From the IMG/VR virus record IMGVR_UViG_3300023112_000001: DNA of 36,684 nucleotides; one strand, written 5' to 3'. The position numbers were made by a program, and so were the translations under genes. Positions 1,575 through 24,247 of this stretch are shown in pieces. This DNA comes from a virus (lineage: Duplodnaviria; Heunggongvirae; Uroviricota; Caudoviricetes; Crassvirales). The notes under the pieces are model-generated. The model had not been told where the DNA came from and ran no database searches. It was given only the letters and a program-made list of their open reading frames with translations. Positions within the stretch are counted from its first letter, which is position 1. The number at the start of each line of letters is the position of its first letter.

Positions 1575-1612
1575 GTAAAGTTTATAAACAGCATTGAGCC
1601 GTACTGAGATAA

Positions 1613-1644
1613 TTTGGATTTTACAATTATTTTTTGTATGTTTG
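1613..1644 (+). promoter_or_regulatory. Bacteroidota primary-sigma-type promoter P1
   Basis: TTTG at 1613-1616, a 20-nt spacer, then TATGTTTG at 1637-1644. This is an exact match to the -33 TTTG / -7 TAnnTTTG consensus. It lies just after the terminator and 19 nt before the ATG at 1664. Confidence 0.8.
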
Positions 1645-2056: not shown

Positions 2057-3930
2057 TGAAATGGCTTGGGCGACACATATCAAGACTTCTTGGTAGAAGT
2101 CTAACTAGAGCGTTTACTATTTTATTGCCAGCATGTATACGAGATTCTGCGGTAGCTTGGTTTAAAGATTTAAACAAAACTGTTGACGATAGCTATGTGC
2201 AAGATGAGATAGGGGATCGTACAGACGATGTATTCTATGGACAATATTTAGCTGAAAATAGTGTAACAGGTCTTTTAGATTTTGATGGAATAGGGGATTA
2301 TGTTTCTTTTGGAGATACTGCGGATATTATAAGAAATAGTAAAACGGTTGCCTTTGAGATGAATCTTGAGGAGAATGCTTCTACAGATTACTTTTCTGTC
2401 CTTGCCTTTAAATCTACGAACGCAGGTGATTTTTTATCTGTAGCATATTCTCCTGGGTTGGGAATGTTTAGAACAAGATCTTCTACCTTTGCTGGAGGAG
2501 GAAGAGACTATGATATAAGTGCTTATCGAAATCAATTAATAGAGGTAGTGATAACTAAAGTTAGTACTAGTGTAATACAGTTGACTGTAAATGGAGTAGC
2601 TATAACCCCTATAGGTGATACTTCTGGAACAGAGCCGACTTTTTCTTATATCGGATATGGTGATGGTATATATGAATACGCTAATTACTTTACTATTTGG
2701 AATGTAAGGATATATGATGGAACAATAACAAATAGTTGGTTAGGGAATCCTGATGGAAATACTGATGCAGCATGGGTAGATGATACTGGTAGTTATGACG
2801 GTACTGTATTTGGTACTCCTGGTGTTACTGAGACACCTTACTATATAAATTTCTATAGAACCTCTGGAACATTTGACTATACTGACCCTTCAGATGGGTC
2901 ACTTGTAGAAGATATTTCTATACCAGGAACAGGATTATATACAATACCTGCAAATGGTGTATGTGATATAAAAGTAGACCCTTATTATCCAGAAGCTGTT
3001 GTAGGATTACTTGATTTCGATGGGGTTGATGATGTTGTCACTCTACCTGCGACGGTAGATGTTACAGGTAATAAAACAATTGACTTTAAGTGTTATATAA
3101 ATGATAGCGTTCCTGGAGAAGACGGTACTGTGACTGGTGCTTTAATGTGTCTTTCACAAGATATCACTGATCTTCTTTGGGTCAATATTAATAAAGAATA
3201 TGAAGAATTTGCTATTTATAGTATTGAGGTTCTATTAAATGCGGGGGATAATACTAACCCGAATGCTTCTTGGTCTTTTGATTTAGACTTATTATTACTA
3301 AATACAATAATTGATATTAGCATTGTAAAGACGGCAGGGCAAATATCCTCATGTAGCGTTAATGGATCACCCGTCACACTGACTTCGTCAGGAAATGGTG
3401 AGATACATACTGCAGAAAATTTAATTGGGGCGGTAACACTATTTTCTACTACTGAATACCTAAGTAGTACCAATATTGGGTATATATGGAGTTTAGGTAT
3501 AGGTAGCAGCCATTCTTACCCTGGCTCGCCTGACGGAAATACCAACACAGCTTGGGTTGATGGTATTGGTACAGACAATGGGGCTGTATCAGGCTCGCCA
3601 ACAACAATAGATTTAAATTTTGGAGATAAATCATATGTATCTTACTATCCTGTATGCGAAAGAGCAGGTACGGTACTACATGATGTAAATGAAAATTCAA
3701 TTCATATATCTGTGACTATGCCTTCTTGGTCAGAAACACTATACGGTTCAGACTATTTGAACCAATATGGATTTGCAAATAAAGCTGAAAGCGATATTGA
3801 GGGGTATGACTGGACAACTAGCGTTGATGGTAATCCAATTGCATTAGATAACAATACTTTAATCCCTTTAAAAAAAAAGAATAGCTTAGTTTCAAATACA
3901 ATAGATGGACCTTTAAATATGATAATATAA
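2056..3930 (+). CDS. Putative receptor-binding/fibre protein with two LamG/concanavalin-A-like domains, 624 aa
   Basis: Two copies of GLLDFDG(I/V)(G/D)D(Y/V)V (2269, 3004), each ending in a G(N/S)PDGNTxxAWVDxxGxxxGxVxGxP motif. FDGxDDYV is typical of LamG-like folds. Confidence 0.6.
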   Translation: MKWLGRHISRLLGRSLTRAFTILLPACIRDSAVAWFKDLNKTVDDSYVQDEIGDRTDDVFYGQYLAENSVTGLLDFDGIGDYVSFGDTADIIRNSKTVAFEMNLEENASTDYFSVLAFKSTNAGDFLSVAYSPGLGMFRTRSSTFAGGGRDYDISAYRNQLIEVVITKVSTSVIQLTVNGVAITPIGDTSGTEPTFSYIGYGDGIYEYANYFTIWNVRIYDGTITNSWLGNPDGNTDAAWVDDTGSYDGTVFGTPGVTETPYYINFYRTSGTFDYTDPSDGSLVEDISIPGTGLYTIPANGVCDIKVDPYYPEAVVGLLDFDGVDDVVTLPATVDVTGNKTIDFKCYINDSVPGEDGTVTGALMCLSQDITDLLWVNINKEYEEFAIYSIEVLLNAGDNTNPNASWSFDLDLLLLNTIIDISIVKTAGQISSCSVNGSPVTLTSSGNGEIHTAENLIGAVTLFSTTEYLSSTNIGYIWSLGIGSSHSYPGSPDGNTNTAWVDGIGTDNGAVSGSPTTIDLNFGDKSYVSYYPVCERAGTVLHDVNENSIHISVTMPSWSETLYGSDYLNQYGFANKAESDIEGYDWTTSVDGNPIALDNNTLIPLKKKNSLVSNTIDGPLNMII

Positions 3931-3931
3931 A

Positions 3932-6127
3932 ATGACAAAAATAACTCATGCAGATAAGGTTTCTGTAACAAACAATCAACTCCCAGAGGAAAATAAATGG
4001 ACTGACGATAATATAAATGAACACAAGCAGTCAGTAAACGACTTATACGACATTGTTGGAGCTGGAGCAGACTCAGACAATCTTATTGTTTATTCTATTA
4101 ATACAGTAGGTGATTTAGCTTCTGTGATTGCAGGGATAACTGATGCTGCTTCTGATAATATGTATAAGATAGAAGTAAGACCAGGTGACTATACAACGGA
4201 ACCTGTGATTCTAAAACCATACATTTATATAAACGGTGTTGATAAAGCAGCATGTAAGTTTACTGCTGATAGCGTGTCTGATACAATATTTGATTTAACT
4301 GTGAGTTCGGGTATTGAGAATCTAACTATTGGTGGAGCGACATCTGGTATAGGGGTTGATTTTACAACAGCTACTCCTGGATTTGCTTTTGCGAATAATA
4401 TTACTGTATTGGATTGTCAGACAGGATTGTTATTTGCAGGTGGTGCTACAGGAGCAATGGAGGTGGATGGTATTACGTTTAATGGGACATTTACTACAGG
4501 TGTAAATCATACTTCTGGCAATTTAACATTAAGAACTCCTGCTGTTGCAGGTACTTCTACTTTAACTACATTTTTAAATATTACTGGAGCTTCTGATATA
4601 TTAACTTTAGATAGGCCTATTTCTTTTAGCTCTAATGTTACAACGGCTTTAAGTATTGCAAATGGAGCTAGAGTATCTGCTAATGATGGTAATTTTGTGG
4701 GTTGTACTAATGGAGTTGTTATATCTGGAGATGATACTAATTTTGTTGCTAGTGGTTTCAAGGTATTTAATTGTACGAATGATGGTTTAAGAATTGATGC
4801 TACTGGAACTAGTCCTGTAGTTACATTAGTAAGTTCTATTATAGATGGTAGTACTAATTTTAATATCAATATATTAAATACAACTGCATCTATAACTGGA
4901 AATTGCATTACAGACACTAGTAAGGTTGCTACTATAGATGGGGCTTCTGTAAACTTCTATATTCTTGATGATTTAGAAGGAGATAGGGGGGTTAAGTTTA
5001 TTGGAGAAGCTGCCATAGGAACTCAATTAAGACCTTCTGAGCTCATAGCTGGAGAGGGAGATAGTCATACTTATTTGAAGTGTTATTCTCAAATATCTAC
5101 AGGAGCCTTTACAGATAGAACTACTGCAGCTAGATCTGCTTCTGGTAGTACATTTACCTTCGATGATTTATTAACCAATAGTGCTATCTATGTAGCCAAT
5201 GATATACAGACAACAGCAGGGGATTATTTAGTATTTCACGGATTAAAGATATCTATAGATACAGCATGTGTATGTAACTATGGAGATGTGATTGCAGAAT
5301 ACTGGAATGGTAGTGCATGGACAGAGTTTAATGGATCAACACAATTGAGTGGAGCTCCTCATTGGAAGTACCGAAAAGAGTATTTCGATAGAACAGGTAG
5401 CTATCATATAAAATTCGATCCAAATATATTAACAGATTGGACAGAAAATGATCCTATGTCATTGGGTTCAACTAGACATTGGATGAGGTTTAGGTTGACT
5501 GCTACAGTTACTACAGCTCCTATATTCCAACAATTCAAAGTATCTACTTCTAGAGCGGAAGTGAATGAGGATGGTAGTAGAGAGGGACATGGATTTGGAA
5601 GAAATATAAAGAAATTAACTTTAGATGCATCAGGCCCTATAGAGGGGAATATGCAGTCTAGTGATATATATGTAGATGCGAATGTAGGAGTTGCATTTAC
5701 CTTCAATAGATATACTGCTGTAGGAGACATGTATGGCTTCAGTTTTGAGCTACCAGAAGATTGTGATACATCTATACCTATTATAATAGCTTGGAAAGGT
5801 AAATTTGCAAGTTCAGGGAGTCCTCAATTCACGGTAAGAAGGAATATAGTGAGTCCAGGAGATCCCTATATCAATTCAGAGCCAGGAGCGAGTGGAAACA
5901 CTCAAACAGTACTTTCTACCATAAGAGCGGTAACTGCAAATGTAAGGGAGGATTTTAGTGTAGAGATAGATGTTAGCGATGCTATTCCAAGTAGAGCTAG
6001 TGGAGGATTTGGAGATGAGATATGGGTTACAATTCAAAATACTACTAGAGCAGGAAATTTCGATCATACAAAGTATTCAGCAAACTATGGAAGTGATTTC
6101 GATGGTAGACATTTAGAACAAGAATAA
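3932..6127 (+). CDS. Putative tailspike with a right-handed parallel beta-helix (pectin-lyase-like), 731 aa
   Basis: N-terminal KITHADKV...ENKWTDDNINEHKQSVNDL fibre-anchor-like segment, a beta-helix cap (YKIEVRPGDYTTEPVILKPYIYING), stacked G/N/T-rich rungs (FNCTNDGLRIDATG), and beta-sandwich-like C-terminal domains. Confidence 0.65.
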   Translation: MTKITHADKVSVTNNQLPEENKWTDDNINEHKQSVNDLYDIVGAGADSDNLIVYSINTVGDLASVIAGITDAASDNMYKIEVRPGDYTTEPVILKPYIYINGVDKAACKFTADSVSDTIFDLTVSSGIENLTIGGATSGIGVDFTTATPGFAFANNITVLDCQTGLLFAGGATGAMEVDGITFNGTFTTGVNHTSGNLTLRTPAVAGTSTLTTFLNITGASDILTLDRPISFSSNVTTALSIANGARVSANDGNFVGCTNGVVISGDDTNFVASGFKVFNCTNDGLRIDATGTSPVVTLVSSIIDGSTNFNINILNTTASITGNCITDTSKVATIDGASVNFYILDDLEGDRGVKFIGEAAIGTQLRPSELIAGEGDSHTYLKCYSQISTGAFTDRTTAARSASGSTFTFDDLLTNSAIYVANDIQTTAGDYLVFHGLKISIDTACVCNYGDVIAEYWNGSAWTEFNGSTQLSGAPHWKYRKEYFDRTGSYHIKFDPNILTDWTENDPMSLGSTRHWMRFRLTATVTTAPIFQQFKVSTSRAEVNEDGSREGHGFGRNIKKLTLDASGPIEGNMQSSDIYVDANVGVAFTFNRYTAVGDMYGFSFELPEDCDTSIPIIIAWKGKFASSGSPQFTVRRNIVSPGDPYINSEPGASGNTQTVLSTIRAVTANVREDFSVEIDVSDAIPSRASGGFGDEIWVTIQNTTRAGNFDHTKYSANYGSDFDGRHLEQE

Positions 6128-6128
6128 T

Positions 6129-7733
6129 ATGGCAACAGATGCAAGGAATTTAACATATAATGATTTAATCGTAGGTAGGGTAAAATATGATTTACCCTTC
6201 ACTACTCTATTAGGAGTGACGTATAGTCAATCTGCTGAAGGAGAAGACTTAGTAGATGCTTATGGAGAATCTCCAGACCTACCATATGTATCGGGATTTG
6301 GAGTAAATCAAATATTCGACCTATCTCCTTTGTCGGATGATAGATGGAACAAAAACGCATATGTAGGAAACGCCTTTACTCTACCTGAATACTACGACTT
6401 CCCATATATAAGCGAAATATACTTCGATACATCAAACCCCTACCATTGGAAGATTAGAGATTGCCACTATAGGTTCTATGAAGAACAAGCTGTAGGTCTT
6501 ACAGATATATCTTTTGCAAAACTTACTTATGAGGATTTTGGTTATGGAATGTTAACTGTAACTGATGGTACTAGTTATATAGAGAGCACTGTCGCTACAG
6601 GCTCGTGGGAATATATTATTAATATAGATGCTGCTACAGCATCTAATTCTGTAGGGCTTATAGGAGATAATATAGATACGGATAATGGGTATTTAGTAAG
6701 AATAAATTCTTCGAGAGCCCTTCTTTTAAGGAGAGGTGACGCAGGTTCATTTACTACTATATTAGGTACGGATGATAATTATATTGAAAATGGCGTAGAC
6801 TATCGTATAAGGGTAGAAAGATCTGTCTCCAATGAATTTACAATGTATATTAAAGGAGGTGCTTTTGGCACAGACTATGTTCTTGTAGATACTACTGGGG
6901 GTACGGGAACCAATCCTATTGTAGATAGCACACATACGATTTCTAATTATCTATCACTTATTTCAGATGCTGATGATGAGATAAGAGAGTTTAGAGTAAA
7001 TGATAGTTATATCAATTTTCAGGATTTTACTACAACTGCTGGTACTTTTGCTATAGACGGTCTCCGTAGTGCGGACGAACTATTGCTTTATCAAAAAGGA
7101 TATGGTTTAGAGTGTACTGATAATGGGGTAACGTATTTAGCTAATACTGAAGCATATGGGGTGCAAGAATTTGGGGTATGTAAGGTTACAGGCACAACCT
7201 TCAAGGTCAACTTTATAAATGATATTACTTCTCTTGAGGAAAATGGGTATACCATTCAGTTTACTTCTGACAACAGAGTTCGGTTAAGAGAAGCTACGGG
7301 AGGCTCATCTTCTACTATAATGTCTACTCCTGTTGGTTATATAGAAGACGATATTTGTTATGGAATAAAAGTTACAAGAAACTCTGTTGTAGATGAATAT
7401 GTGCCGGGAGCAGTAAATACATTTGCTGTATACATAAAAGGAGGGTTGTTTGGAACTGATTATGTATTGGTTGATCCTACAGGAGGTTCTGGAACGAATC
7501 CTATTATAGATAGTACTCACACAACATCTGTTTATTCATTGGTAGATTACGATGACGGTGATGTGTTAGAATATTATTATATTAATTCGATTCCAGTAGA
7601 TACTAGAAATTTTACAGACACTACAGCAGTATCTACAGTAATATCTTCTCAGGTAGATCCTAAATTGACTGAGATACAGAGCTATGTTAATTTATTACCT
7701 CCTACTTACGAATATTATAATAACGAAGTATAA
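6129..7733 (+). CDS. Structural protein with a tandem-duplicated lectin-like beta domain, 534 aa
   Basis: Internal repeat YIKGG(A/L)FGTDYVLVD(T/P)TGG(T/S)GTNPI(V/I)DSTHT at 6846-6938 and 7431-7523. Confidence 0.55.
   Translation: MATDARNLTYNDLIVGRVKYDLPFTTLLGVTYSQSAEGEDLVDAYGESPDLPYVSGFGVNQIFDLSPLSDDRWNKNAYVGNAFTLPEYYDFPYISEIYFDTSNPYHWKIRDCHYRFYEEQAVGLTDISFAKLTYEDFGYGMLTVTDGTSYIESTVATGSWEYIINIDAATASNSVGLIGDNIDTDNGYLVRINSSRALLLRRGDAGSFTTILGTDDNYIENGVDYRIRVERSVSNEFTMYIKGGAFGTDYVLVDTTGGTGTNPIVDSTHTISNYLSLISDADDEIREFRVNDSYINFQDFTTTAGTFAIDGLRSADELLLYQKGYGLECTDNGVTYLANTEAYGVQEFGVCKVTGTTFKVNFINDITSLEENGYTIQFTSDNRVRLREATGGSSSTIMSTPVGYIEDDICYGIKVTRNSVVDEYVPGAVNTFAVYIKGGLFGTDYVLVDPTGGSGTNPIIDSTHTTSVYSLVDYDDGDVLEYYYINSIPVDTRNFTDTTAVSTVISSQVDPKLTEIQSYVNLLPPTYEYYNNEV
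6846..7523 (+). repeat. Intragenic domain duplication; conserved cores at 6846-6938 and 7431-7523
   Basis: The 31-aa cores are near-identical in protein sequence but diverged at synonymous positions. Confidence 0.85.
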
Positions 7734-8155
7734 TGAGAAGTAAAGCAATAGAAATAGAGATTGATATAGATCTGATACCTCAAGAGGTTTTAGACTCAGG
7801 TATATTAGATATTGAATATTCTGCTAGAGGGATGTCAACCCCTGTAGAAGTAGCAGAAGATGAAGTTGTTGAAAGAGTAGGTTGTAATATTCTATGGATT
7901 CATAGTGATGGGTTTAAACCTTTTCTTGATGAATACTTTCAATATTTAACTGCCGTTATATCTGCGTATAATAGAACTACTAAAACCGACCATTTAAATC
8001 TTTATATAGAAGATATTGATGCGGAAGAATCAGAGTATAATTATACAGATCAAGAAGGTATAACCTATAGAAATGTAAGATTTTCTGAGTTAGGAGAAGT
8101 AAATTTAGCAGAAGTTAAGTTTAGAAGAGATCTTGGTAATGAGATAGAAGAATAA
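7733..8155 (+). CDS. Hypothetical acidic protein, 140 aa
   Basis: TAATG-coupled ORF in the operon; no motif recognised. Confidence 0.55.
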   Translation: MRSKAIEIEIDIDLIPQEVLDSGILDIEYSARGMSTPVEVAEDEVVERVGCNILWIHSDGFKPFLDEYFQYLTAVISAYNRTTKTDHLNLYIEDIDAEESEYNYTDQEGITYRNVRFSELGEVNLAEVKFRRDLGNEIEE

Positions 8156-8157
8156 TT

Positions 8158-8484
8158 ATGGCTACATTAAAATTTAAAGGGAAGGCTCCAGAACTTATAA
8201 AGATAGCAATAGCTGTAGGAGCAGAGAGTATATTCTTCGATGTAAGTAATGACTATGAACCTATATGGTTTGATAGTGAGCAATTAGAGTATTTCTATGG
8301 CTCTCAAATATTTACAGATGTTGAAAATCAGAAGAATATGATTTGGACAGATACACCTGTTACGGGAGATTGTTTACAGACTACTTATGATTTTATAGGT
8401 TATGAAATATGGTTATTAGAAACAGGATATTGGAATGACTCTGCAGGTAATGTTTGGGCAGATGAAAGTCTTTGGGTAGATTAA
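8158..8484 (+). CDS. Hypothetical phage protein with a C-terminal W-x-D repeat, 108 aa
   Basis: Ends WLLETGYWNDSAGNVWADESLWVD, a Trp/Asp tail of the kind seen in small phage tail-region proteins. Confidence 0.5.
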   Translation: MATLKFKGKAPELIKIAIAVGAESIFFDVSNDYEPIWFDSEQLEYFYGSQIFTDVENQKNMIWTDTPVTGDCLQTTYDFIGYEIWLLETGYWNDSAGNVWADESLWVD

Positions 8485-8503
8485 TAAAAAAAAATAAATA
8501 AAA

Positions 8504-8854
8504 ATGGCAACAATAAATCAAGTTAATAACGGAGATACCGCACTATTAGCACGTACAACTTGGAATGATAACGATACTGCTGTCAATGTAGAAGTTACAG
8601 CAGCTACAGCAGCTATAACTGCGTTACAAGGTAGGTTTGATAAACAGACTACTAACTTAGTAGCAGACACAGATAACACTGATATAACAAACCCCTTCGT
8701 GTTCCCTATAGTACCTAATGTGGTACAGGTAAGGGCTTCTGACGGTACGCTTATATTAGATGCTTATCAAAATGTTAATCCTGCTAATGGAAATATAACA
8801 ATACAAACTGGCGCAAATTATACTGGCGCAATAATAACTATAATAGGATGGTAA
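8504..8854 (+). CDS. Small fibre-like structural protein, 116 aa
   Basis: N-terminal MATINQVNNGDTALLARTTWNDN resembles the NGD(T/S)GxxxRxKxNxN start of many phage fibre proteins. It is followed by a short coiled coil (EVTAATAAITALQGRF) and a small beta domain. Confidence 0.5.
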   Translation: MATINQVNNGDTALLARTTWNDNDTAVNVEVTAATAAITALQGRFDKQTTNLVADTDNTDITNPFVFPIVPNVVQVRASDGTLILDAYQNVNPANGNITIQTGANYTGAIITIIGW

Positions 8855-10662
8855 AGAAGTGGTTAATAAGTCTATTGCTAGTGTGTGTGTCTATCAGCAC
8901 GTTTAGTCAAAGACAATTAGAAATTGATAGAGAGACAAATTTAAATGCAGGAGTACAAATAGGCTCCTCCGGTGATTATATTACAGATATCACTTACGAT
9001 ACGGATACAGTAATCTTCGATTTTGAAGGGACTTTATTTCAATTAGTAGATTATTCTGAAGGGAATAGTTTTCCTAGTGGAACGCAAGGAGACGTATTGT
9101 ATTACAATGGGTCTAATTGGGTAGTTTTAGCTGCGGGAACATCCGGCTATGTATTAAGCACTAACGGTGCAGGAGCTAATCCTACATGGGTAGAACAAAC
9201 TGGTGGTGGTGGTGGAGGAGAAGTTTCTTTCTCAGATACTAATACCACAATAGGAACTATCTATAATGAATCTGTATTAGAGGCACGATTAGAGGACACT
9301 ACATCATTCGACACATCCTCTGCTAGTGATTATCTAGTATTCATAAGTGACTCGGTAGGCGAATCTGCTTTGTATTGGAATCCTTTGCAGATTACACAAG
9401 CAATTGGTGAAGGTGGTGGAGGAACTTCTTATGATTCAGTTTATATATACGCAGAGCTTTACAGAATAAGGGATTCCATTAATGAAGAAATGGTAATACT
9501 GGATTCAAGGATTACTCAAAACGAAAACGACATAGTAACTCTGTATGCCTTAGTAGAAGGATTGGGAGGCGAAGTGCCACCTAGATATGATTCATCACAA
9601 GTTCCTGCATTAGACGGAACGGTATTGTATGTATTTTTATCTAAGCCTGCCGACTATGATTCAGTACCAAATGTAGCTGATTTTGCATTTACAGAAGATG
9701 GAGGTTCAATGCCTATTACAAGTGTAGCTTTCTCAGATGGAGCAGATTCACTTATTTTTGCAATGGACACAACATTTTCAGCAGGAACTACTATTTTATC
9801 TAGCTATACACCTTCTGCATACCCTAGATTGCAAGATAGCTCAGAAAATGTAAATACAGGATGGGCAGATAAGCCTGTTGTAAATAATGTATTAGCTAGT
9901 CAGTTTTCAGCGGAATATGCAGCCTACTATAATGAATTAACTGTTAAGCCATCTGAAACGATAGCGCAACATCAAGATACTTTGTTTAGAGATATAGTTG
10001 CTTACGGCTTTTATGATACAATCAAAGGTGGGTATATTTTAGCACAGGAATCAAACGCAAATGGAGAGGCTTTAGTTGATATAATCAATCCAAGTACAGT
10101 ATCAGCAGTATCGACAAACAACCCAACATTTACTTCAAATAGAGGTATTGCACATAATGGGTCAACTTCTTATACTGACTTGATGTTTAATGCAGCAGAT
10201 TACCCTTACTTACTAGATGCTATATCTATAGGTTTGTATTCTAGGACAGCTGCATCAAATAACAATGCTTCAATAGGTGCTTCAGATGGTTCATATACAA
10301 CATTCTTTACGCCACAACATACTGATAATTCAACTTACTATGGAATTAACTCAGGAGGGTTTGCAGCAGAAGTTAATGGAACTGGTGGAGATGGATTCTT
10401 TGTATTCAATAGAACAAGTTCAGGTAATGTAACGGCATATTTAGATGGCACCATATATTCAAATCAATCACAAGCCTCATCAGGATTACCAAATGTAAAT
10501 TATTGGATTGGTGGTTATAACAATAACGGTGCTTTAGGAGAACCATCTAATGGCGAAACCTCTTTGGTTTTATTTATGGGACTTTTAAATGCTACACAGA
10601 TAGCAAACTTAAATACTGCAGTTGAAAAATTCATGGATGCAATTGGGGCCGGAGTACAATAA
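8848..10662 (+). CDS. Signal-peptide-bearing fibre/adhesin-like protein with a SwmB-like repeat and C-terminal ConA/LamG-like domain, 604 aa
   Basis: MVKKWLISLLLVCVSISTFS|QRQ looks like a Sec/SPI signal with +1 Gln. It has the fibre-type motif GDVLYYNGSNWVVLAAGTSGYVLSTNGAGANPTW, Gly linkers, a coiled coil (LDSRITQNENDIVTLYALVEGL), a SwmB-like Ig repeat (~9613-9849) and a lectin-like C-terminus. Confidence 0.6.
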   Translation: MVKKWLISLLLVCVSISTFSQRQLEIDRETNLNAGVQIGSSGDYITDITYDTDTVIFDFEGTLFQLVDYSEGNSFPSGTQGDVLYYNGSNWVVLAAGTSGYVLSTNGAGANPTWVEQTGGGGGGEVSFSDTNTTIGTIYNESVLEARLEDTTSFDTSSASDYLVFISDSVGESALYWNPLQITQAIGEGGGGTSYDSVYIYAELYRIRDSINEEMVILDSRITQNENDIVTLYALVEGLGGEVPPRYDSSQVPALDGTVLYVFLSKPADYDSVPNVADFAFTEDGGSMPITSVAFSDGADSLIFAMDTTFSAGTTILSSYTPSAYPRLQDSSENVNTGWADKPVVNNVLASQFSAEYAAYYNELTVKPSETIAQHQDTLFRDIVAYGFYDTIKGGYILAQESNANGEALVDIINPSTVSAVSTNNPTFTSNRGIAHNGSTSYTDLMFNAADYPYLLDAISIGLYSRTAASNNNASIGASDGSYTTFFTPQHTDNSTYYGINSGGFAAEVNGTGGDGFFVFNRTSSGNVTAYLDGTIYSNQSQASSGLPNVNYWIGGYNNNGALGEPSNGETSLVLFMGLLNATQIANLNTAVEKFMDAIGAGVQ

Positions 10663-10677
10663 AAAACAAATCAAAAA

Positions 10678-13014
10678 ATGAAAAAGATATTATATATAGC
10701 GATTTTAATGATAATGAGTTTGGGCTTAAATGCTCAGACTTATTACGTATCTAATACAGGTAGTGATTTAGCAGATGGGTTAACTACTGGTACAGCATGG
10801 CAGACAATAAGTCATGTTAATGCACAGACAATAAGTTCAGGAGATAGTGTTCTCTTTGAAGCGGATGGTGTTTGGAGAGAAGAATTAATTATCTCTGATA
10901 ACGGTACAGCAGGGGAAGGCAATTGGGTTGCCTATTCTAGATACGGTTCTGGTGAGAATCCTAGAATAGTAGGTTCTGAACAAGCAATTACATGGACTGC
11001 CACAGGAACACCTAATGTATGGCAATCAGCCACTTTACTAACTAATTATTCATACTACGATCAATCTAGTGGCGGTTGGGATGGTTATCAAGGTAGAATA
11101 TTCTTTATTGAACAAGATGATTCTATATCATGGGGACACCATAATGTAACATCTTATCAATCTTTAGCAAGTGAATATGATTATTTTGTTACAGGTGTAT
11201 CAAATGATATAAACCAAACTTACTATGTTTATTCTACCACTGACCCTGACACAAGATATAAATCCATAGAAGTTACTCAAAGAAATACAAGCGTAACCTC
11301 TAGCGGTACTTTTGGTAATTATACCGAATTTAACGGTATAGACTTATTATTTAGTAGAACAGAGGGGTATGATTTAGGCTATCCTGCCGAGAGAGGGGCT
11401 ACAGATCAAATATATAGAAACATGAGAATTGGGTATATTGGCTCTCAACCATCAGGTAAAGCTTACGGACTTTCGGTTGGATGTAGTAATTTACTTATTG
11501 AAAACTGCGACATAGGAGATTGTGGACGTAGGGGGGTTTCTATTAATTTATATAGAGAGCCACAATCACCTGCAGAAGAAAGAGTTTATAAGAACATAAT
11601 AATCAGAAATAATACATTTCAAAGAGGATATCATACAACTTCTTTAGATATGAGTTCACAGCAAACAACTAGAGATTCAATTTATAATGTGTATTTCTAC
11701 AACAATACGGTTGATGATTCAGATTTTGATGGAGATATATGTGACGGATGTACTTCTAACCAAATATACTTTCAAGAAGGGGATGGTTATATAGATAGTG
11801 CTTATGTATTTGGAAATATGTTTGTAGGTTCTAATGCTAGGAACATATTGCTTGAAGATGGAGAAAATTTTTATGTATGGAATAACACGATATTAGGTCA
11901 CGATACTAATTTGACTATTAGTCCTTATTGGGCAATGGGAGTTAATAATTCTTTATATGTCGATTATGCTAACAATATATATTATGATCCTTCACCTGCA
12001 GTAAGATTAGCAGCAAATAGTGGGATTGGTGCGGAACATGCTACTAGTGAATTTGTTAGAAAAGATTACAATCTATATTACCAAGTTAACCCAACTAACG
12101 GTAATGAATTTACAGGAGGTTATTTTGGATATTATGCTACAGGAAATTGGGCTTTGTATCGATCAGACAATCCAACATTTGATGCTAACTCGCCAATACC
12201 TGCTGATCCAGAATTTACTAGTTGGTATAATAAGGATTATACTATAAGTGAAACATCACCTGCTAAAGATGCAGGGGTAACATTGCCTTCGATACTACTT
12301 AGCGACCCAAGGTCAGGCTCTATAGTAGACATGACACAGAAGGATGTAACAGGGGAAGATTACGAAACACCTCCTAGTTTAGGTGCATATGAATATGTAA
12401 TTGCAGATCCTACAGCTACAGATATAACTTCTTTTATATTGTCAGAGCAAACAGGTGCAGCAATAATAAATACAACAGCCCACACAGTCGATATAGAGGT
12501 CGCATACGGGACTTCTTTGATTAGTTTAACTCCTAGCATCACTGTGAGCAGAACAGCCACTATAGACCCCCTATCAGGTGTGGCTCAAAACTTCTCATCT
12601 CCTTTTACATATACGGTGACAGGTGGAGATGCAGTAACAGAACAAGATTGGGAAGTAACCGTAACTGTTGCGGACGCTGCTACAGGTGCAGATATTACAA
12701 GCTTTACATTACCACAACAAGTTAGTCCTGCTATTATTGATGCAGGCGCTCATACAGTAACCATTACAGTAGCGTACGGTAGTAATGTAGCTTTGTTAAC
12801 TCCTACGATAGGGTTATCTTCAGGAGCAACAGTATTGCCTTTGTCTGGCACGACGCAAGATTTTACAAACCCTTTCGATTATACGGTAACGGCGGAAGAC
12901 GCTATAACAAACCAAGTTTGGGAAGTAACAGTAATAGTTAAAGCGCAAGCAAGTCTATTTGTTATAGACGGAAAGTTAGTTAAGATAGCTGGAAAATACG
13001 TACTTAATAAATAA
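10678..13014 (+). CDS. Signal-peptide-bearing parallel beta-helix (polysaccharide-lyase-like) protein with two DUF5018-like Ig domains, 778 aa
   Basis: MKKILYIAILMIMSLGLNA|QTYYVSNTGSDLADGLTTGTAWQTISHVN is a signal peptide followed by the YYVSxxGxDxxxG cap of Bacteroidota beta-helix proteins. It has rungs such as NIIIRNNTF and NVYFYNNTV, and two repeats starting DITSFxL...TVxIxVAYG (~12415-12669, ~12685-12939). Confidence 0.75.
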   Translation: MKKILYIAILMIMSLGLNAQTYYVSNTGSDLADGLTTGTAWQTISHVNAQTISSGDSVLFEADGVWREELIISDNGTAGEGNWVAYSRYGSGENPRIVGSEQAITWTATGTPNVWQSATLLTNYSYYDQSSGGWDGYQGRIFFIEQDDSISWGHHNVTSYQSLASEYDYFVTGVSNDINQTYYVYSTTDPDTRYKSIEVTQRNTSVTSSGTFGNYTEFNGIDLLFSRTEGYDLGYPAERGATDQIYRNMRIGYIGSQPSGKAYGLSVGCSNLLIENCDIGDCGRRGVSINLYREPQSPAEERVYKNIIIRNNTFQRGYHTTSLDMSSQQTTRDSIYNVYFYNNTVDDSDFDGDICDGCTSNQIYFQEGDGYIDSAYVFGNMFVGSNARNILLEDGENFYVWNNTILGHDTNLTISPYWAMGVNNSLYVDYANNIYYDPSPAVRLAANSGIGAEHATSEFVRKDYNLYYQVNPTNGNEFTGGYFGYYATGNWALYRSDNPTFDANSPIPADPEFTSWYNKDYTISETSPAKDAGVTLPSILLSDPRSGSIVDMTQKDVTGEDYETPPSLGAYEYVIADPTATDITSFILSEQTGAAIINTTAHTVDIEVAYGTSLISLTPSITVSRTATIDPLSGVAQNFSSPFTYTVTGGDAVTEQDWEVTVTVADAATGADITSFTLPQQVSPAIIDAGAHTVTITVAYGSNVALLTPTIGLSSGATVLPLSGTTQDFTNPFDYTVTAEDAITNQVWEVTVIVKAQASLFVIDGKLVKIAGKYVLNK
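12415..12939 (+). repeat. Two tandem ~85-aa Ig-like (DUF5018-like) repeats
   Basis: ATDITSFILSEQ...AHTVDIEVAYGTSLISLTPSI...NFSSPFTYTVT versus GADITSFTLPQQ...AHTVTITVAYGSNVALLTPTI...DFTNPFDYTVT. Confidence 0.85.
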
Positions 13015-13030
13015 CATTATATTTCACATT

Positions 13031-13339
13031 ATGAGCACTAAAGAAGAATTGGAGGAGCAGTTAGAGATGGAAAGGTTTAAAGGCGTGTATGCTAAAATAG
13101 AATCTAATAATGAAGCTGTAAATAAAAAGATAGACAGCAATCATAATGAAACGCAACTTATATTGAGGCAAATTTTAGATCAAACCATTAAGACTAATGG
13201 TAGAGTTACAAAACTAGAAAATGAAACTCAATTTTTTAGAACAATAGGTAAATACCCTAGAATGGCGATGTTAGCTGTAGTGGGATTATGTGGATTAACA
13301 ATTATATTAGGATTAGGAACAATATTTAAAGTATTTTAA
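13031..13339 (+). CDS. Membrane protein with a coiled coil and C-terminal TM helix; holin/XhlA-like
   Basis: QTIKTNGRVTKLE coiled-coil motif followed by the hydrophobic stretch MAMLAVVGLCGLTIILGLGTIF; adjacent to a 2-TM protein. Confidence 0.5.
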   Translation: MSTKEELEEQLEMERFKGVYAKIESNNEAVNKKIDSNHNETQLILRQILDQTIKTNGRVTKLENETQFFRTIGKYPRMAMLAVVGLCGLTIILGLGTIFKVF

Positions 13340-13351
13340 AACTATAAAATT

Positions 13352-13570
13352 ATGGAATTATTAAAGATATTATTTTTTGGAGGTAATGAATTTAGTTGGA
13401 GAAAAGCTCTAACTGCGATAACTGCATTCGTATTTGCATTTGCAGTAATAGGTTTTTTGTTTGGGTTGCCAGAAATACCATCATCCTATCAGGCTATCAT
13501 AGCTGGTGTATTTGGATTTTACTTTTTTAAAGAAGTATTTAGCGGCGTTAAATTAACCAAAACAAAATAA
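13352..13570 (+). CDS. Putative holin with two TM helices, 72 aa
   Basis: TM1 ALTAITAFVFAFAVIGFLFGL, TM2 AIIAGVFGFYFF, and a basic C-terminus KLTKTK. Confidence 0.55.
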   Translation: MELLKILFFGGNEFSWRKALTAITAFVFAFAVIGFLFGLPEIPSSYQAIIAGVFGFYFFKEVFSGVKLTKTK

Positions 13571-13602
13571 TTTGTAATTATCAACTATTTTTTGTATATT
13601 TA
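13571..13602 (+). promoter_or_regulatory. Bacteroidota-type promoter P2
   Basis: TTTG at 13571-13574, a 20-nt spacer, then TATATTTA at 13595-13602. It is 28/35 identical to P1 without gaps and lies 19 nt before the ATG at 13622. Confidence 0.7.
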
Positions 13603-16254: not shown

Positions 16255-16836
16255 ATGAACAAACTAAATTTAATATTGTCAATAATAATACTAATCCTAA
16301 TCATAGCGTTAGGGTTAGTGTTTAATAAAATGCGAGATAATCGTGATGATGCTATTAGGTGGGAGCATAACTATGAACAATCCAGTGATACTATTAGTAG
16401 AATAAATGTAACTCTTAGAGAATTTAAGAAGACCTCTAAAGCCACAAATGATTCCCTTTTAAAAGCATTGAAGATTAAGCCAAAGCAGATAGAAACTATA
16501 ATAACTATTCATTCTGAATATAATAATGTTGATACTACACACATTACTCTAAACAAGGTTGATAGCACTAGTAAGACGCATTACTTTATGGAATCCATAG
16601 ACTGTGTTGAAATAGGAGGTATAGTTATTACAGAATACGATAGCGAGCCAGAATTAATAATTACTAATATATCATATACTAATGATATAGATTATATAGC
16701 TTACTGGAAGCGTAGGCAATGGAAGTTTCTAGGAATAAAAACTAGACTTTTTGGCAAGAAGCTTGGAGAATTAGAAGTGTCTAGCGAATGCGGTAACATT
16801 GAATTACATCAAATAGATATAATAAAGAAAAAATGA
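16255..16836 (+). CDS. Putative inner-membrane spanin (Rz-like), 193 aa
   Basis: Single N-terminal TM helix (LNLILSIIILILIIALGLVF) followed by a coiled-coil periplasmic region and a C-terminal WKRRQWKFLG segment. Confidence 0.55.
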   Translation: MNKLNLILSIIILILIIALGLVFNKMRDNRDDAIRWEHNYEQSSDTISRINVTLREFKKTSKATNDSLLKALKIKPKQIETIITIHSEYNNVDTTHITLNKVDSTSKTHYFMESIDCVEIGGIVITEYDSEPELIITNISYTNDIDYIAYWKRRQWKFLGIKTRLFGKKLGELEVSSECGNIELHQIDIIKKK

Positions 16837-17492
16837 CTTTAAGAGACTATTCATACTTATTATTAGAAGAGATTAGAAACGCTCATATTGTAGACGACGA
16901 AAGAATAGACTTACGATTTCTAGATACTCTTATTGGCATAAAGAGGGAAAAGGTTTTAAGTAAGGATAATTCTACTTCAGCTCATAATGAAACTCTAAGA
17001 CAAACAATGTGGGTTGATATGGAGCTGGATTCTTCGGGGCACAATCCTTCTATACTTCAGTCAGAAGAATTATTGCCTACCTTTATAGAGAATAAATACG
17101 GACCCCTTATAGATGAGATAAGAGGTACTAATCATATGGCTCCTCATTTTACTGTAGTTCCATTTGATAGAATAAGATGGTGTGGCAATGGTTATTTTAA
17201 TAAAAATAATATATTCGCATCCGTTCATGGTAAAAGAGTCTATTTAAAAAGTAAAGACGACGCCTTTAGATTAATTGAAAGAATTAAAATAGAAGGTGTA
17301 TTTTCTAATCCTATGGAGGTATTAGATGCTAATGGCGATCCTCAACTAACTCCTACGACTGGAACGTATCCTTTAAATGGAGATATTTTTGAATCTGTAA
17401 AAAGCTTAATAAACAAAGAGGATATCGCCTTTATGTTAAGACTGCCATCTGATGAGGTTAATGATGCTACTGGAAATATAACTTTAGATTAA
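16833..17492 (+). CDS. crAss-like tail ring protein (gp40-like), 219 aa
   Basis: MTLRDYSYLLLEEI...DDERIDLRFL start, IEGVFSNP and YPL motifs, and a C-terminal PSDEVND; ATGA-coupled to the previous gene. Confidence 0.65.
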   Translation: MTLRDYSYLLLEEIRNAHIVDDERIDLRFLDTLIGIKREKVLSKDNSTSAHNETLRQTMWVDMELDSSGHNPSILQSEELLPTFIENKYGPLIDEIRGTNHMAPHFTVVPFDRIRWCGNGYFNKNNIFASVHGKRVYLKSKDDAFRLIERIKIEGVFSNPMEVLDANGDPQLTPTTGTYPLNGDIFESVKSLINKEDIAFMLRLPSDEVNDATGNITLD

Positions 17493-18052: not shown

Positions 18053-18928
18053 ATGGCTTACAATAAACGACATGTTGGGTTTTCTAGAATTATAGAAAAT
18101 GTATATAGAACTTCTGGATATGATGATATTGATTGGGAATCTGCTGTAGAATGGACCTCAGCTTTAATGCGTATAATAGGCGTTCCTGCAGCTTTTGTGC
18201 AGAAAAGTACTAATGGGTTAGATGGAAATAGTCTTCCAATAGAAATTTCTAACTATAGAGGTATTTTACCAAACGATATAGTTACCAGAGGATCTTGTAG
18301 AAGAATAGATATTAATGATAATATGGAGATTTATAAGTTCTCCGCAATGCAAGAGACTACAGATTTGTTTTTTCAAACCCCAGGAGCTGAAAGTATCGAT
18401 AATCCAGTATTCTTTGATCCATATTATAATACTGTATATATAGATGAAAATGGTGAATCTCAACCAGTAACATTAACTCAAAGCCCATCTTATTATGGGA
18501 CTGGAGATACGTTCACTTATAAAATAGAGGGAAATATAATCTTCACTAATTTTAAAACAGGTTATGTTGAAATGGAATATAAAGGTTTTGCTATAGACGA
18601 AGATGGTCTTCCAGCAATTCCTGATGATGAAAAATACATAAGAGCTATTGTTTGGGAGATAATTGCAAATACTGATAGAAAAACTTGGCGTAAAAATCCA
18701 TCACCTCAAAACAAATCAATATATAATGATTCCGCTCAGGAAAGAGATTGGGCTGTATCTTCAGCTAGAACTAAAGGTAGAATACCTACTGTTGATGAAT
18801 TAGAGTCAATAAAGAATATGTGGGTTAGAAGTATACCTAAGATTAATGAACATGCTACAGGATTTAAAACTCTTGGAGCTCAAGAAGTTAGATATAATCA
18901 GAATAATAGAACATGGCGCACAAGATAA
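18053..18928 (+). CDS. Tail tubular/ring protein (P22 gp4-like; crAss001 gp43-like), 291 aa
   Basis: YKIEGNIIFTNFKTGYVEMEYKGFAIDEDGLPAIPDDEKYIRAI motif; lies immediately upstream of the muzzle gene. Confidence 0.75.
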   Translation: MAYNKRHVGFSRIIENVYRTSGYDDIDWESAVEWTSALMRIIGVPAAFVQKSTNGLDGNSLPIEISNYRGILPNDIVTRGSCRRIDINDNMEIYKFSAMQETTDLFFQTPGAESIDNPVFFDPYYNTVYIDENGESQPVTLTQSPSYYGTGDTFTYKIEGNIIFTNFKTGYVEMEYKGFAIDEDGLPAIPDDEKYIRAIVWEIIANTDRKTWRKNPSPQNKSIYNDSAQERDWAVSSARTKGRIPTVDELESIKNMWVRSIPKINEHATGFKTLGAQEVRYNQNNRTWRTR

Positions 18929-21900
18929 AAAATACATTCAAAGGGCTTGACACTGATACTAGTATCAATAAATATTCTAATGATAAGTATTATGATGCTA
19001 GAAATATACGAATATTAACAAATGATTCTTTAACTTCTGGGGCAATAAGTAATTTCCCTAGACCTGATATAGAAATAAGTTATGGTGGGTCGGGTCGTAA
19101 AGTTTTAGGAACTACTATGGTTAGAGATACTTTAGTAGTTTTTTGCGTACATGAGTCTTCTGGAGAAAGCCTTATTTTAAAATCTGAGGAAGGTAACGCT
19201 AATTTTATATTAGTATATAGCGATATAAATTCAGATACTAAATTAGAATTTAACGTAGATAATCCTATTAGAGGGGTAGGTCGATATGAATCTGAAACAG
19301 TTCAAAAAGTTTATTGGTGCGATGGATTAAATCCAAACTCATATATAAATATTGCAGATACCTATGATATGGGTGTGGGAACTTCTTATGAGGCAACGTT
19401 ATTTAGATTAACCCCTAATTCAGAATTACACTCCCCAATACCACAAGAAGTAATCTCAGGAGGATCATTAGAGTCAGGGATAATATATTATACCTATCAA
19501 CTATATAGAAACTATGGTAGTGAAACTAGCATGAGTTCAAGTAGTTTTGGCGTACCATTATCTAGTAGAAACGGTTCAGAATTAAATGAATTTCGAGGAG
19601 ATGAAGTTGGGGTCAATACAGGGCAAAGCGTAGAGGTAGAATTCAATAATCTTGATTCAGACTTTGACAGGATTAAAATATATTCACTACTATTTACAGA
19701 TATAGATGCTGACCCTGTTATTAATTTAATTTCAGATAGAGAATACACAGGTGACACACTTACTATAATAGATTCAGGTGCTATAAGCCTAGAGTCCCTT
19801 ACTACTACTGAGTTCTTAGGAATGGGAGGTAGAGTGTTTAGTTCTGAAACCTTAGAGACTAAATACAATTATTTATTTCCTGGCAATATAAAAGAAAGTA
19901 GATCAGATATAGATTTTGATGCTAGAGCGTATAGATATAAGATTCAGCAATTAGATGGGGTTGTGGGTGTTGGTAATGATGTTATTACAACTGGATTATT
20001 TTTTAGAGCTACTTTCCCATCAGGTCTGAAGGAGTTGGGTAATAGTATTTATGCTACAATAACTCCTAACGAATCTACTCCTATAAACTTAACCGTTGCA
20101 GCTAAGACATATGAGGAATTAGATGAACTTATATATACATTTGAAACACCTGATCCAGGAGGAGTATGGGATGATCCAACTAACTTGGAGTTTGGTGAAG
20201 GTGAGGTAGTATACCATTCTGGAATTTTATATAGGTCTTTAGTTGATCATATTAATATTGAGCCTGGCACTAATCCTACTTATTGGCATGTCTTTTTTGA
20301 TCCTGCGTCCTCTACCGTAATAAGTGATGGAGCAGGAATTTATTCTCAAATAGAGACAGTTGGTGGAGCTCAAACCAATATATATCCAGGAGATGATTTA
20401 ACTCTTATTGCAGAGAATCATGATGCTATAAATCAATTTAATAATTTTGAAAAGGATCTTGAATGGTTTAGATCTGGTGAGAGAACTAGCGAGGACGAAT
20501 TTAAATATAACTCTGGAGGATCTATTATTGGAGGGTCAGGCTTAAATATTTCCTATTTATTCACTACTGAAAGTATTGCTGCCAACAGACAGACTGCATC
20601 TTCTGTGGCATTAAGAGATATCCTTACCAAAGATGACAGCTTCTTAAATCCTATTTTAGCAGGTAAATATAAAGGCTATAAAAGAAATGAAGTGTATCGG
20701 TTTGGTATAGAGTTTATTTTTAAAAATGGTCAAAAATCTTTTGTTAAATGGATTGGTGATATTAGATTTCCTACAATGGGGGATGAGCCATTAACTACAG
20801 ATGCTCCAAATTCTGTTGACAATGAACAGTTAGGTTTATTTTTAACAGTCAATTTAACATATTTTGAAGCGAATTATCCTGAAGAATACGCCTCGTTAAG
20901 CGGTATTAAAGTTGTTAGAGCTAAAAGAACTGATTTAGATAAGAATATTCTTTATCAAGGATTGAGCGGACCATATCAATATGTTCCTTGGGATAATGCT
21001 GATGATCCTAGTACTTATGGCTCGTATTCAGTGATACCTAATTCAACTGATATTAGAAAGGGGCTTATTGCTGTTGAAGATACAGATTATCCTGGAAGTA
21101 TTGGCACGGCAGTAGAGGTAGATTTATCAGATAATTTATATGAATTTAATTCTCCTGATTTGATAATTGGTGGGAGTATATCCCATCGTTCTTCGGATAG
21201 CGTTTACTATGCAGGAGCATTAGAAATAAATCGTCATACGGATAGCCCACACGCCACAGGAGGGTCTAACGAGCAGCCTTATTTTAATGAACGTAACTAT
21301 GCGGATCGAGGCGTTTATAATTTTGGACTCAAACAAGAGGTAAATAATATTACAGAATCAAAACTTAATTTTGATGGTTCTACAAATAATGGTCACTCTT
21401 ATTTTTCATCAGAGACTCTTAATAATAGAACTATTATGTGGAGAAGCAGTGGTGATGATGACGGTATTAGAGATAAACATCTAGTTCTAGATTTAGATAC
21501 TTCACCTGCTTTTAAAACTAAAGTAGGTAATCTTTTACCTCCTGCTTGGCTTACATCGAGAACCTATAAGCTACACGATATAGTGGCAAATCCAGGTCTT
21601 TCTATATATTATAGATCATTAGTTTCTAACAATCAAGGTAATTTACCTTCCAGCAGTCCTGCGGAATGGCAGGAGGTCAATATTGAAAAAGATACTTTTA
21701 TAGGAGATTACGTTAGAAACAAATTTGGAAGTCAATATGGAGGAAATTCATATAGTGCTAGACAGTTAACAAGTTTTATACCAACAGTTTGCAAGATTAC
21801 CACAGGAGAAGTGGTTGAGTTTATACCTATTTCAGAATTTGATAATGTTAATAAAGAGGCTGATTTAAGAGTATTTGGAGGCGATACATACGTTTCTAAC

Positions 21901-24244: not shown

Positions 24245-24247
24245 GAC

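Follow-up and report, generated by a model that had tools for sequence, protein, structure and literature searches.

The structural region of a crAss-like phage, represented by a stretch of 36,684 nucleotides (nt) from the IMG/VR record IMGVR_UViG_3300023112_000001 (the whole stretch is called the window), carries two consecutive genes encoding proteins of 604 and 778 amino acids (aa) which both start with a secretion signal peptide (leader). They are preceded by a gene encoding a leaderless 116-aa protein. The 604-aa protein is built like a tail fibre, the 778-aa protein is a beta-helix of a family of secreted enzymes, and the 116-aa protein is a putative adaptor between fibre and tail. These genes are interpreted here as an exported, periplasm-matured receptor-binding module of a crAss-like phage of a Bacteroidota host, which would dock on the particles at lysis; this interpretation seems to us about evenly balanced between right and wrong. 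The leaders, their conservation, the gene order, a bias towards glycosylation sites and the fold of the enzyme are established in this analysis. According to the textbook account the assembly of tailed phages is wholly cytoplasmic. Passage of the host-recognition proteins through a secretion pathway would, if true, be a new step in virion morphogenesis.

The leaders were called by hand, by applying the rules for the n-, h- and c-regions and for positions -3, -1 and +1, and by conservation across relatives. The 604-aa protein begins with the basic residues MVKK, followed by a hydrophobic core of 13 residues, T-F-S and Gln21, so that position -3 is Thr, -1 is Ser and +1 is Gln. The 778-aa protein begins with MKK, a core of 14 residues, L-N-A and Gln20. 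Their best 10-residue hydropathy values (2.97 and 2.99, respectively) are the highest of any open reading frame (ORF) of the window save one membrane anchor, and a leader-type N-terminus was found in three of the 24 ORFs of the coding strand, the third belonging to an N-terminally anchored 193-aa protein (16255-16836). The substrates of signal peptidase I of Bacteroidota follow a Q-rule (PMC10653852). Both proteins follow it too: a basic n-region leads into the h-region, no acidic residue occurs ahead of the predicted cut, positions -3 and -1 are occupied by small or uncharged residues, and Gln is at +1. The original prediction of Sec-type leaders with Gln at +1 on both proteins is thereby confirmed, as far as the residues themselves can tell.

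Homologues of the two proteins are not routinely leaderless. A strongly hydrophobic N-terminus is present in 76 of the best 95 of the 181 relatives of the enzyme, directly before the TYYVSN start of the beta-helix, so the leader is an ancestral and conserved feature of a secreted enzyme family; all four full-length relatives of the fibre bear leaders with the invariant Gln. Met1 and Gln21 are invariant in an alignment of five fibre proteins, and Gln at +1 is common among the other relatives. Moreover, leaders with Gln at +1 and the full n-h-c architecture were found in dozens of proteins of unrelated phages.

It is nevertheless conceivable that the leaders are not used, the hydrophobic N-terminus being retained, translation starting downstream or the adaptor binding beside the leader during translation and so keeping the fibre inside, with conventional assembly in the cytoplasm. 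Such a course would agree with the established assembly of tailed-phage virions in that compartment, and coupled translation would put the adaptor near the nascent fibre. The leader of the 778-aa protein contains Met11 and Met13, which could yield a leaderless form, although internal Met is absent from the leader of relatives such as P0004. In addition, the near-identical metagenomic strain L010 has a C-to-T change and a 1-nt deletion in the fibre leader (3001-3060 in L010, corresponding to 8848-8910 in the window). The ATG frame of L010 stops early, and the called start is a GTG which gives a shorter and weaker hydrophobic N-terminus. This lesion may have arisen in the assembly; alternatively, L010 is a natural leader-defective variant, and the leader would then be dispensable. 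However, unused leaders would hardly be expected to keep, across unrelated phages and dozens of proteins, the full architecture with the Gln typical of the host at +1, nor would they explain two results described below, the glycosylation sites enriched only in leader-bearing proteins and the repeated retention of the leader by enzymes that lost another export signal. We consider it rather improbable that the leaders are idle.

The fibre architecture proposed for the 604-aa protein was also found. Residues 76-114 form a widespread phage-fibre motif, which in unrelated phages such as Pelagibacter phages sits at the extreme N-terminus of leaderless fibres. It is followed by Gly-rich linkers, a coiled-coil stretch, an immunoglobulin (Ig)-like repeat (residues ~245-350) in common with a protein of phage L001 (expectation value, E, 6e-14) and a C-terminal domain (residues 350-582) which matches phrog_26223 and proteins of Sinorhizobium phages. 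The model of the monomer is poor, with a predicted local distance difference test (pLDDT) value of 35. Full-length relatives are few, namely P0121, P0122 and the products of the genes preceding the enzyme gene in L001, L003 and L008, all with a leader. The closest of them, P0122, is 67% identical and differs in the region after the docking site. This divergence, along with the presence of the gene pair in a phage with different head genes, reads as the mosaic pattern usual for virion fibres. No cellular relatives of the fibre or of the 116-aa adaptor were found in the searches run.

The 116-aa gene is tied to the fibre gene by position. As had been noticed earlier, the two genes overlap; the overlap is of 7 nt (ATGGTAA) and comprises the stop of the 116-aa gene and the start of the 604-aa gene. 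The 3' end of the 116-aa gene is GGATGGTAA, and the ATG within GGATGGTAA is the start of the 604-aa gene. The ATGGTAA overlap between adaptor and leader gene is also present in L010, L026 and L027, and in every context read (the window, L010, L022, L023/L024, L026 and L027) the adaptor gene is directly followed by a gene encoding a leader protein with Gln at +1. Apart from this the leader proteins are dissimilar, with lengths of 237 to 1094 aa. Five otherwise different post-adaptor proteins have in common a motif of ~15 residues which starts exactly at the predicted cleavage site and consists of Gln, a basic residue, acidic-hydrophobic-Asp/Asn/His-Arg and then hydrophobic-x-hydrophobic-Asn.

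The adaptor family is small, with 10 representatives recovered by an exhaustive HMMER search of 1.8 billion proteins. A metagenome scan returned one locus, already among those read, and the adaptor profile had no match in viral contigs. The N-terminal 40 residues, which would form the anchor, are swapped between members, while residues 47-116 are conserved. The N-terminus of P0160 is the T4 gp9/10 N motif and that of P0157 is of the type found in an analogous 124-aa protein of L003; the analogous 118-aa protein of L001 also matches T4 gp9/10 N families. In L001, L003 and Cellulophaga phage phi10:1 the leader block is likewise preceded by a small leaderless protein (116-124 aa). By BLASTP the window adaptor has no similarity to these small proteins, and their equivalence is one of position and build. 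In P0159, a metagenomic protein of 182 aa, a domain 53% identical to the 108-aa protein encoded just upstream of the adaptor (E 8e-27) is fused to the adaptor C-domain and replaces the anchor, which makes the 108-aa protein a likely structural neighbour of the adaptor. The fusion suggests that the two proteins touch or substitute for each other. The 108-aa protein also has a weak PHROG match to a virion structural protein.

A co-fold of the adaptor with the fibre, suggested in the original prediction as a check, was carried out with three copies of the adaptor and three of fibre residues 21-100, using our own alignments and without the leader. The runs scored 0.88, 0.88 and 0.89 and all three controls scored 0.00. 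The pLDDT of the partner was at least 84, and at least 96% of the contacts were common between runs. The mark applied to such scores was reached by 58 of 80 solved complexes and by 2 of 110 mismatched pairs, a calibration which is rough here owing to the own alignments and multi-copy chains. The adaptor is predicted as a confident trimer (pLDDT 96) whose interface (residues 54-57, 85-88 and 101-104) overlaps the family-invariant columns. On the fibre side the predicted contacts are residues 21, 22, 24-28, 30, 33 and 34, which correspond to the conserved motif. Binding of the fibre by the adaptor is thus supported as a model prediction. As a small trimer which would join a receptor-binding protein to the tail, the adaptor resembles the T4 gp9/gp10-like connectors of branched tailspikes and fibres (PF07880; phrog_677, "baseplate wedge tail fiber protein connector"). 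It differs from them in being a separate protein of ~100-120 aa, in having a leader-bearing partner and in that the predicted contact is the N-terminus which the partner would have after cleavage.

Bacteroidota O-glycosylate exported proteins at D-(S/T)-(A/I/L/V/M/T) (PMC8550257), and the counts of this sequon were compared with residue shuffles. The 604-aa protein has 10 sequons against 3.1 expected (p ~0.003) and the membrane-anchored 193-aa protein has 4 against 0.8; no other protein of the window is enriched. When 23 leader-bearing proteins of the phage loci were pooled, 283 sequons were counted against 91 expected (3.1-fold), whereas 13 leaderless structural proteins of the same phages had 39 against 44. 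The bias is specific for Asp (0.70 for Glu and 1.06 for Asn), and D-[ST] is depleted (0.64) where a non-permitted residue comes next. It can be taken as an independent sign that the fibre-like proteins evolve in the glycosylating compartment of the host, and an enrichment restricted to leader-bearing proteins is hard to explain if these proteins never reside in the periplasm.

An AlphaFold2 model of the 778-aa protein, built from a 20-sequence alignment, has a mean pLDDT of 84. It comprises a leader helix (residues 2-16), a right-handed beta-helix (21 to ~575), two Ig-like domains (583-755) and a disordered tail (759-778). The best Foldseek matches are the glycoside hydrolase (GH) family 120 XylC (E 5e-12), GH136 lacto-N-biosidases, BT_1002, GH110 and the polysaccharide lyase (PL) family 9 pectate lyase Pel9A; phage tailspikes and capsule depolymerases gave weaker matches. 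For the Ig-like domains the matches are glycan-binding surface proteins of Bacteroides utilisomes, and in Pfam the only families found on the protein were PF16410 and PF22243, corresponding to two DUF5018 Ig-like domains. Asp, Arg and His columns are invariant in the family alignment. The protein had been described beforehand as a polysaccharide-lyase-like beta-helix. The beta-helix stands, and the pattern of Foldseek matches supports a probable glycanase but does not establish a lyase.

Most of the 181 matches of this family come from metagenome bins of Bacteroidota, and PF18962, the sorting domain of the type IX secretion system (T9SS), is present in 37 of the best 95. The closest cellular relatives are T9SS proteins 44-48% identical to the enzyme. 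A tblastn search with the 778-aa protein found no relative in cultured phages, with one weak match to an Ig domain, and single-protein scans of viral contigs found little. The T9SS beta-helix proteins of Bacteroidota (PF13229 with PF18962, many also with DUF5018 or discoidin domains) resemble the 778-aa protein in identity (40-48%), position of the leader, motifs and DUF5018. However, the phage protein has no C-terminal sorting domain (in Pfam neither PF18962 nor a C-terminal domain of type A or B was found) and has in its place a hairpin-like tail of 20 residues. Since the sorting domain is absent, it should not cross the outer membrane by the T9SS.

The tail (12952-13011, residues 759-778) consists of short strands with Gly, Asn-Gly or Asp-Gly turns between them. 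Such tails also end P0002, P0004, P0008, P0019, P0024, P0027, P0037 and P0057, at the place where the cellular copies have the T9SS domain. The types of tail do not track the phylogeny of the enzyme, and no clear link was seen with the head genes or with the C-terminal domain of the neighbouring protein; P0002 and P0019 have the same type in phages with unrelated capsid genes. The tail was considered as a shrunken remnant of the T9SS domain, at which a MAFFT alignment hints, or as a foldon-like trimeriser.

Besides the window, eight further copies of the enzyme gene were read in their phage contexts (L001, L002, L003/L007, L006, L008, L019, L020 and L021). L002 and L021 are crAss-like, L003/L007 is a podovirus with a P22-type portal (62.9 kb, terminal repeats), L001 is a 35-kb phage and L008 is a complete phage of 74.8 kb with terminal repeats; the other three are L006, L019 and L020. 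The sorting domain is absent from all nine phage copies and present in 37 of the 86 other relatives among the best 95. All nine end in a short hairpin-like tail, and the leader is kept in all but P0008, whose called start is truncated. The copies are 39-70% identical to each other. In a maximum-likelihood tree of the beta-helix domain they are scattered among the T9SS copies, and the starred branches force at least six changes of label. This scattering indicates that the combination of a kept leader and a lost sorting domain arose or was selected repeatedly, which argues against a decaying relic and also against idle leaders. In L008 the enzyme has an extra N-terminal domain of ~370 residues ahead of the beta-helix.

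A recently captured host cassette (a moron) without a phage-specific role, in which the leader is a relic and the position in the tail module incidental, has to be weighed against this history. The nearest cellular relatives are the T9SS proteins mentioned above, the two-gene cassette has a higher G+C content (0.38-0.40) than the ~0.34 of the window, and it occurs in phages with different head genes. The closest relative, L006, has an enzyme 70% identical and a fibre 67% identical to those of the window, and its gene pair adjoins a prohead protease gene and a capsid gene unmatched in the L003/L007 phage or L008; the differing head genes indicate that the pair moves between phage backgrounds. 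Nevertheless, divergent phage copies which share the leader, the loss of the sorting domain and the hairpin-like tail point to a long persistence under selection in phages, and no cellular relatives of the fibre and adaptor turned up in the searches run. We regard a recent capture as very improbable. The rise in G+C is seen at 12001-13000 (0.40 against ~0.34 for the window), a segment which encodes the two DUF5018 Ig-like domains, and it fits a horizontal origin of the DUF5018-coding part.

Among cultured phages a similar arrangement exists in Cellulophaga phage phi10:1 (NC_021802), a siphovirus of Cellulophaga baltica. Its gp090 (116 aa) is leaderless, gp091-gp095 all have a leader with Gln at +1, and gp096-gp098, 3' of the leader block, are small multi-pass membrane proteins. 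The GenBank record describes gp091-gp094 as structural "based on experimental MS/MS proteomics analysis" (tandem mass spectrometry, MS/MS), gp093 as "pectate lyase" and gp094 as "tail fiber protein". For a cultured phage, virion preparations have thus yielded leader-bearing proteins of this kind. The likeness to the window lies in the leaderless 116-aa gene, the leader block including beta-helix "pectate lyases" and the small membrane genes. The phages differ in that gp090 has no BLASTP similarity to the adaptor, in that phi10:1 is a siphovirus and not a crAss-like podovirus, and in that its leader proteins show no sequon enrichment. The leaders pass without comment in the record, and likewise in the literature searched.

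The original prediction had the phage exporting both proteins during infection, and as its first option had them docking on virions, perhaps through the 116-aa adaptor. Export is supported, if indirectly, by the conserved leaders, their recurrence in nine phage genomes and the sequon bias. Of the three options offered, docking gains most, for the 604-aa protein, from the co-fold, the conserved interface and the MS/MS annotation of phi10:1; the 778-aa protein may or may not attach. In the proposed course of events, the leaderless 116-aa protein would be made in the cytoplasm, trimerise and be built into the tail by its N-terminal anchor. The 604-aa fibre would be translated from the overlapping start and cross the inner membrane by the host Sec pathway, signal peptidase I would cut before Gln21, and Gln21 would be cyclised as in the Q-rule proteins of the host. 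The general O-glycosylation system of the host may then decorate the fibre, and the 778-aa glycanase would be exported in the same manner. Lacking both a lipobox and a sorting domain for the T9SS, the two proteins should stay periplasmic. Once the inner membrane is breached at lysis, the mature fibre would dock by its first ~14 residues on the adaptor C-domain of finished particles. We infer export, cleavage, glycosylation, the timing of docking and any arrival of the 778-aa protein on the particle.

Several observations weigh against this course of events. The window adaptor has no match to PF07880 (T4 gp9/gp10 N) at E up to 1. As the complex was modelled without the leader, the co-fold does not show that cleavage is needed, and detection by MS/MS in the virion preparation of phi10:1 may also reflect free protein that co-purified. 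The 778-aa enzyme is not enriched in sequons (4 against 4.1 expected), nor are the leader proteins of phi10:1, and the leader lesion of L010 belongs to the same side. No endolysin gene lies beside the putative holin genes or elsewhere in the window. Furthermore, the enzyme has no recognisable particle-binding domain and its mature start is the motif of its cellular relatives. Together with the absence of sequon enrichment, this indicates that the 778-aa protein may be a free enzyme, and such a role, foreseen in the original prediction as a freely released helper, is a real possibility for this protein.

A broader alternative is that the proteins are exported and never reach the particle. The fibre-like lectin and the glycanase would act as soluble or periplasmic helpers, freed at lysis, which strip capsule, exopolysaccharide or receptor glycans off the infected cell and its debris, and their effect would be easier release, progeny that do not stick or exclusion of superinfection. 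The family of the 778-aa protein consists mainly of cellular secreted enzymes, and the phage copy lacks an N-terminal particle-binding domain. In L021 the gene preceding the enzyme gene encodes a leader and a C-terminal lectin-like domain alone (293 aa), without a shaft. Membrane or lysis genes lie directly 3' of the module in the window, L002, L003, L008, L020, L021 and phi10:1, and the sequon bias could be an adaptation to export and not to virion residence. On the other hand, the leaderless, connector-type adaptor is conserved and translationally coupled to the fibre, the mature N-terminus opens with a docking motif, and the co-fold separates the adaptor-fibre pair clearly from its controls. 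Moreover, the genes lie within a late structural operon and the counterparts in phi10:1 are listed as structural proteins detected by MS/MS. We think it unlikely, although by no means negligible, that both proteins act as helpers only.

Docking of a periplasm-matured fibre could be extended to Bacteroidota tailed phages in general. These phages would complete their particles outside the cytoplasm, with fibres and glycanases that are Sec-exported, cleaved, pyroglutamate-capped, O-glycosylated, held in the periplasm by the loss of the T9SS domain and joined through their new N-terminus to an adaptor already in place, only once the membrane is opened by the holin. This generalisation is offered tentatively, as somewhat more doubtful than not. 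If true, the cleavage of the signal peptide would license the attachment of fibres and the virion would be decorated by host glycans. Recruitment of secreted host enzymes, with their disulfides and glycans, as tailspikes would then also find an explanation, and the secretion, signal peptidase, glutaminyl cyclase and O-glycosylation genes of the host would be dependency factors of the phage. Leader-bearing genes in tail modules are easily dismissed as morons during annotation. For the engineering of receptor-binding proteins of gut and marine Bacteroidota phages, including crAss-like phages, the adaptor and docking motif offer a concrete, testable predicted interface.

Full-text literature searches found no paper describing secretion leaders on tailed-phage fibres or tailspikes. 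The earlier designation of the system as undescribed holds for the literature searched; it has to be qualified by the cultured examples in GenBank and by the Q-rule leaders reported on five genes of unknown function in Porphyromonas gingivalis prophages by Matrishin et al. 2023 (PMC10367356). These authors suggested modification of the host envelope and stated that this phylum's phages have genes for proteins adapted to the general secretion system of the host. Both the Q-rule substrates (PMC10653852) and the Porphyromonas prophage genes (PMC10367356) resemble the window genes in leader architecture and in the Gln exposed at +1. Unlike the prophage genes, those of the window are fibre and glycanase genes within a virion operon and have a dedicated adaptor. 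The new elements are the adaptor family, a docking motif that opens at the predicted cut, and the recurrent loss of the T9SS domain.

Two further systems may be compared. The mosaic adhesive trimer (MAT) fibres of Bdellovibrio bacteriovorus are phage-fibre-like trimers with a signal peptide which work outside the cytoplasm (Caulton et al. 2024, PMC10769870). Their existence shows that folding of such fibres is possible after export by Sec. They are likened to the 604-aa protein by build, but serve a predatory cell as surface adhesins and belong to no virus particle. Endolysins exported by Sec or released from a signal anchor (such as fOg44 Lys44 and P1 Lyz; see the review PMC6116005) are similar to the module in being late proteins that use the host Sec pathway and wait outside the cytoplasm for lysis. 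They differ as lysis enzymes with no virion or receptor-binding role, and no peptidoglycan hydrolase domain is present in the module.

The original prediction also placed two holin-like genes directly after the module. Two genes for small membrane proteins (102 and 72 aa) are indeed there; their identity as holins did not hold up as well, since neither matched any family, including holins, in Pfam, PHROGs or NCBIfam, and no endolysin gene is adjacent. The 72-aa protein is hydrophobic from residue 18 on and has a Lys-rich tail, with at least one transmembrane segment by threshold and probably two by eye. It is small, transmembrane and charged at the C-terminus, as is usual for holins in size and topology, and in the Atlas it lies nearest to clusters of small viral proteins without a name (score 0.90), which is no more than a lead. 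In L020 a gene for a protein built like the 102-aa protein is flanked by the enzyme gene and a CHAP endolysin-like gene. In L003, L008 and L020 an amidase or CHAP gene comes next after the small membrane genes, and no membrane or lysis genes adjoin the module in L001 or in L006, its closest relative. The downstream membrane proteins are dissimilar across loci, except for those of L002 (89 aa) and L008 (88 aa). A holin reading is a reasonable but tentative one, based on size, topology and position, and the adjacency may reflect a simple late-operon order.

Longer runs of leader-bearing genes were also observed. L008 (836-9752) has four in succession, encoding 158, 1233, 653 and ~929 aa, and L003 (4340-12313) has four encoding 1310, 91, 478 and 770 aa. 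In both of these complete and unrelated genomes the leader genes are followed by a small membrane protein and an Amidase_2 endolysin.

The assignment of the window to the structural region of a Crassvirales phage follows from the Pfam hallmarks crAss_AuxCP, CrAss_Ring_1 (E 1e-43), CrAss_Ring_2, crAss_MUZ (E 2e-181) and crAss_CARG1. Every gene in the window lies on the + strand, and the five ORFs of the original prediction, from the 116-aa to the 72-aa gene, are found where it had placed them (Table 1). A nucleotide search with the 5-kb region against 50,697 phage records gave no match.

Table 1. Coordinates of the module and of other features in the window
Feature	Position	Strand	Basis
crAss001-type auxiliary capsid protein	301-1515	+	Pfam
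Promoter-like 35-nt repeat, copy 1, upstream of the operon ending with the module	1609-1643	+	
108-aa protein without leader, likely virion-side partner of the adaptor	8158-8484	+	P0159 fusion, weak PHROG match
116-aa adaptor without leader; variable N-terminal anchor, conserved C-domain (residues ~47-116)	8504-8854	+	
604-aa fibre-like protein, predicted exported	8848-10662	+	
Predicted signal peptide of the 604-aa fibre, residues 1-20, cut Ser20/Gln21	8848-8907	+	n-h-c, -3/-1 and +1 rules
Predicted mature N-terminal docking motif, fibre residues 21-34	8908-8949	+	Conservation, co-fold
778-aa beta-helix protein (probable glycanase), two DUF5018 Ig-like domains, 20-residue C-terminal hairpin-like tail	10678-13014	+	
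Predicted signal peptide of the 778-aa enzyme, residues 1-19, cut Ala19/Gln20	10678-10734	+	n-h-c, Gln at +1
102-aa protein, coiled-coil N-terminal part, one C-terminal transmembrane segment	13031-13339	+	
72-aa small membrane protein, basic C-terminus, holin candidate by topology and position	13352-13570	+	
Promoter-like 35-nt repeat, copy 2, directly 3' of the 72-aa gene	13567-13601	+	
Ring protein 2	16833-17492	+	Pfam
Ring protein 1	18053-18928	+	Pfam
Muzzle protein	18913-23337	+	Pfam
Cargo protein 1	23393-25318	+	Pfam

The gene of the 193-aa protein immediately precedes that of ring protein 2. The protein combines an N-terminal membrane anchor with a coiled coil. As it is enriched in sequons, its bulk may face the periplasm, and a spanin-like or lysis-related role is possible.

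The two 35-nt direct repeats listed in Table 1 are 83% identical and contain TTTG and a T-rich element, which would resemble the promoters of Bacteroidota. They bracket a run of fibre-region genes of ~12 kb (1664-13570), which makes it probable that one late operon closes with the module and the two small membrane genes. The same operon encodes a 624-aa protein (2056-3930), whose N-terminus is Arg-rich and partly hydrophobic and is not a classical leader, and three more large leaderless fibre-region proteins (731, 534 and 590 aa). As these leaderless genes share the operon with the module, the phage has both leaderless and leader-bearing appendage genes.

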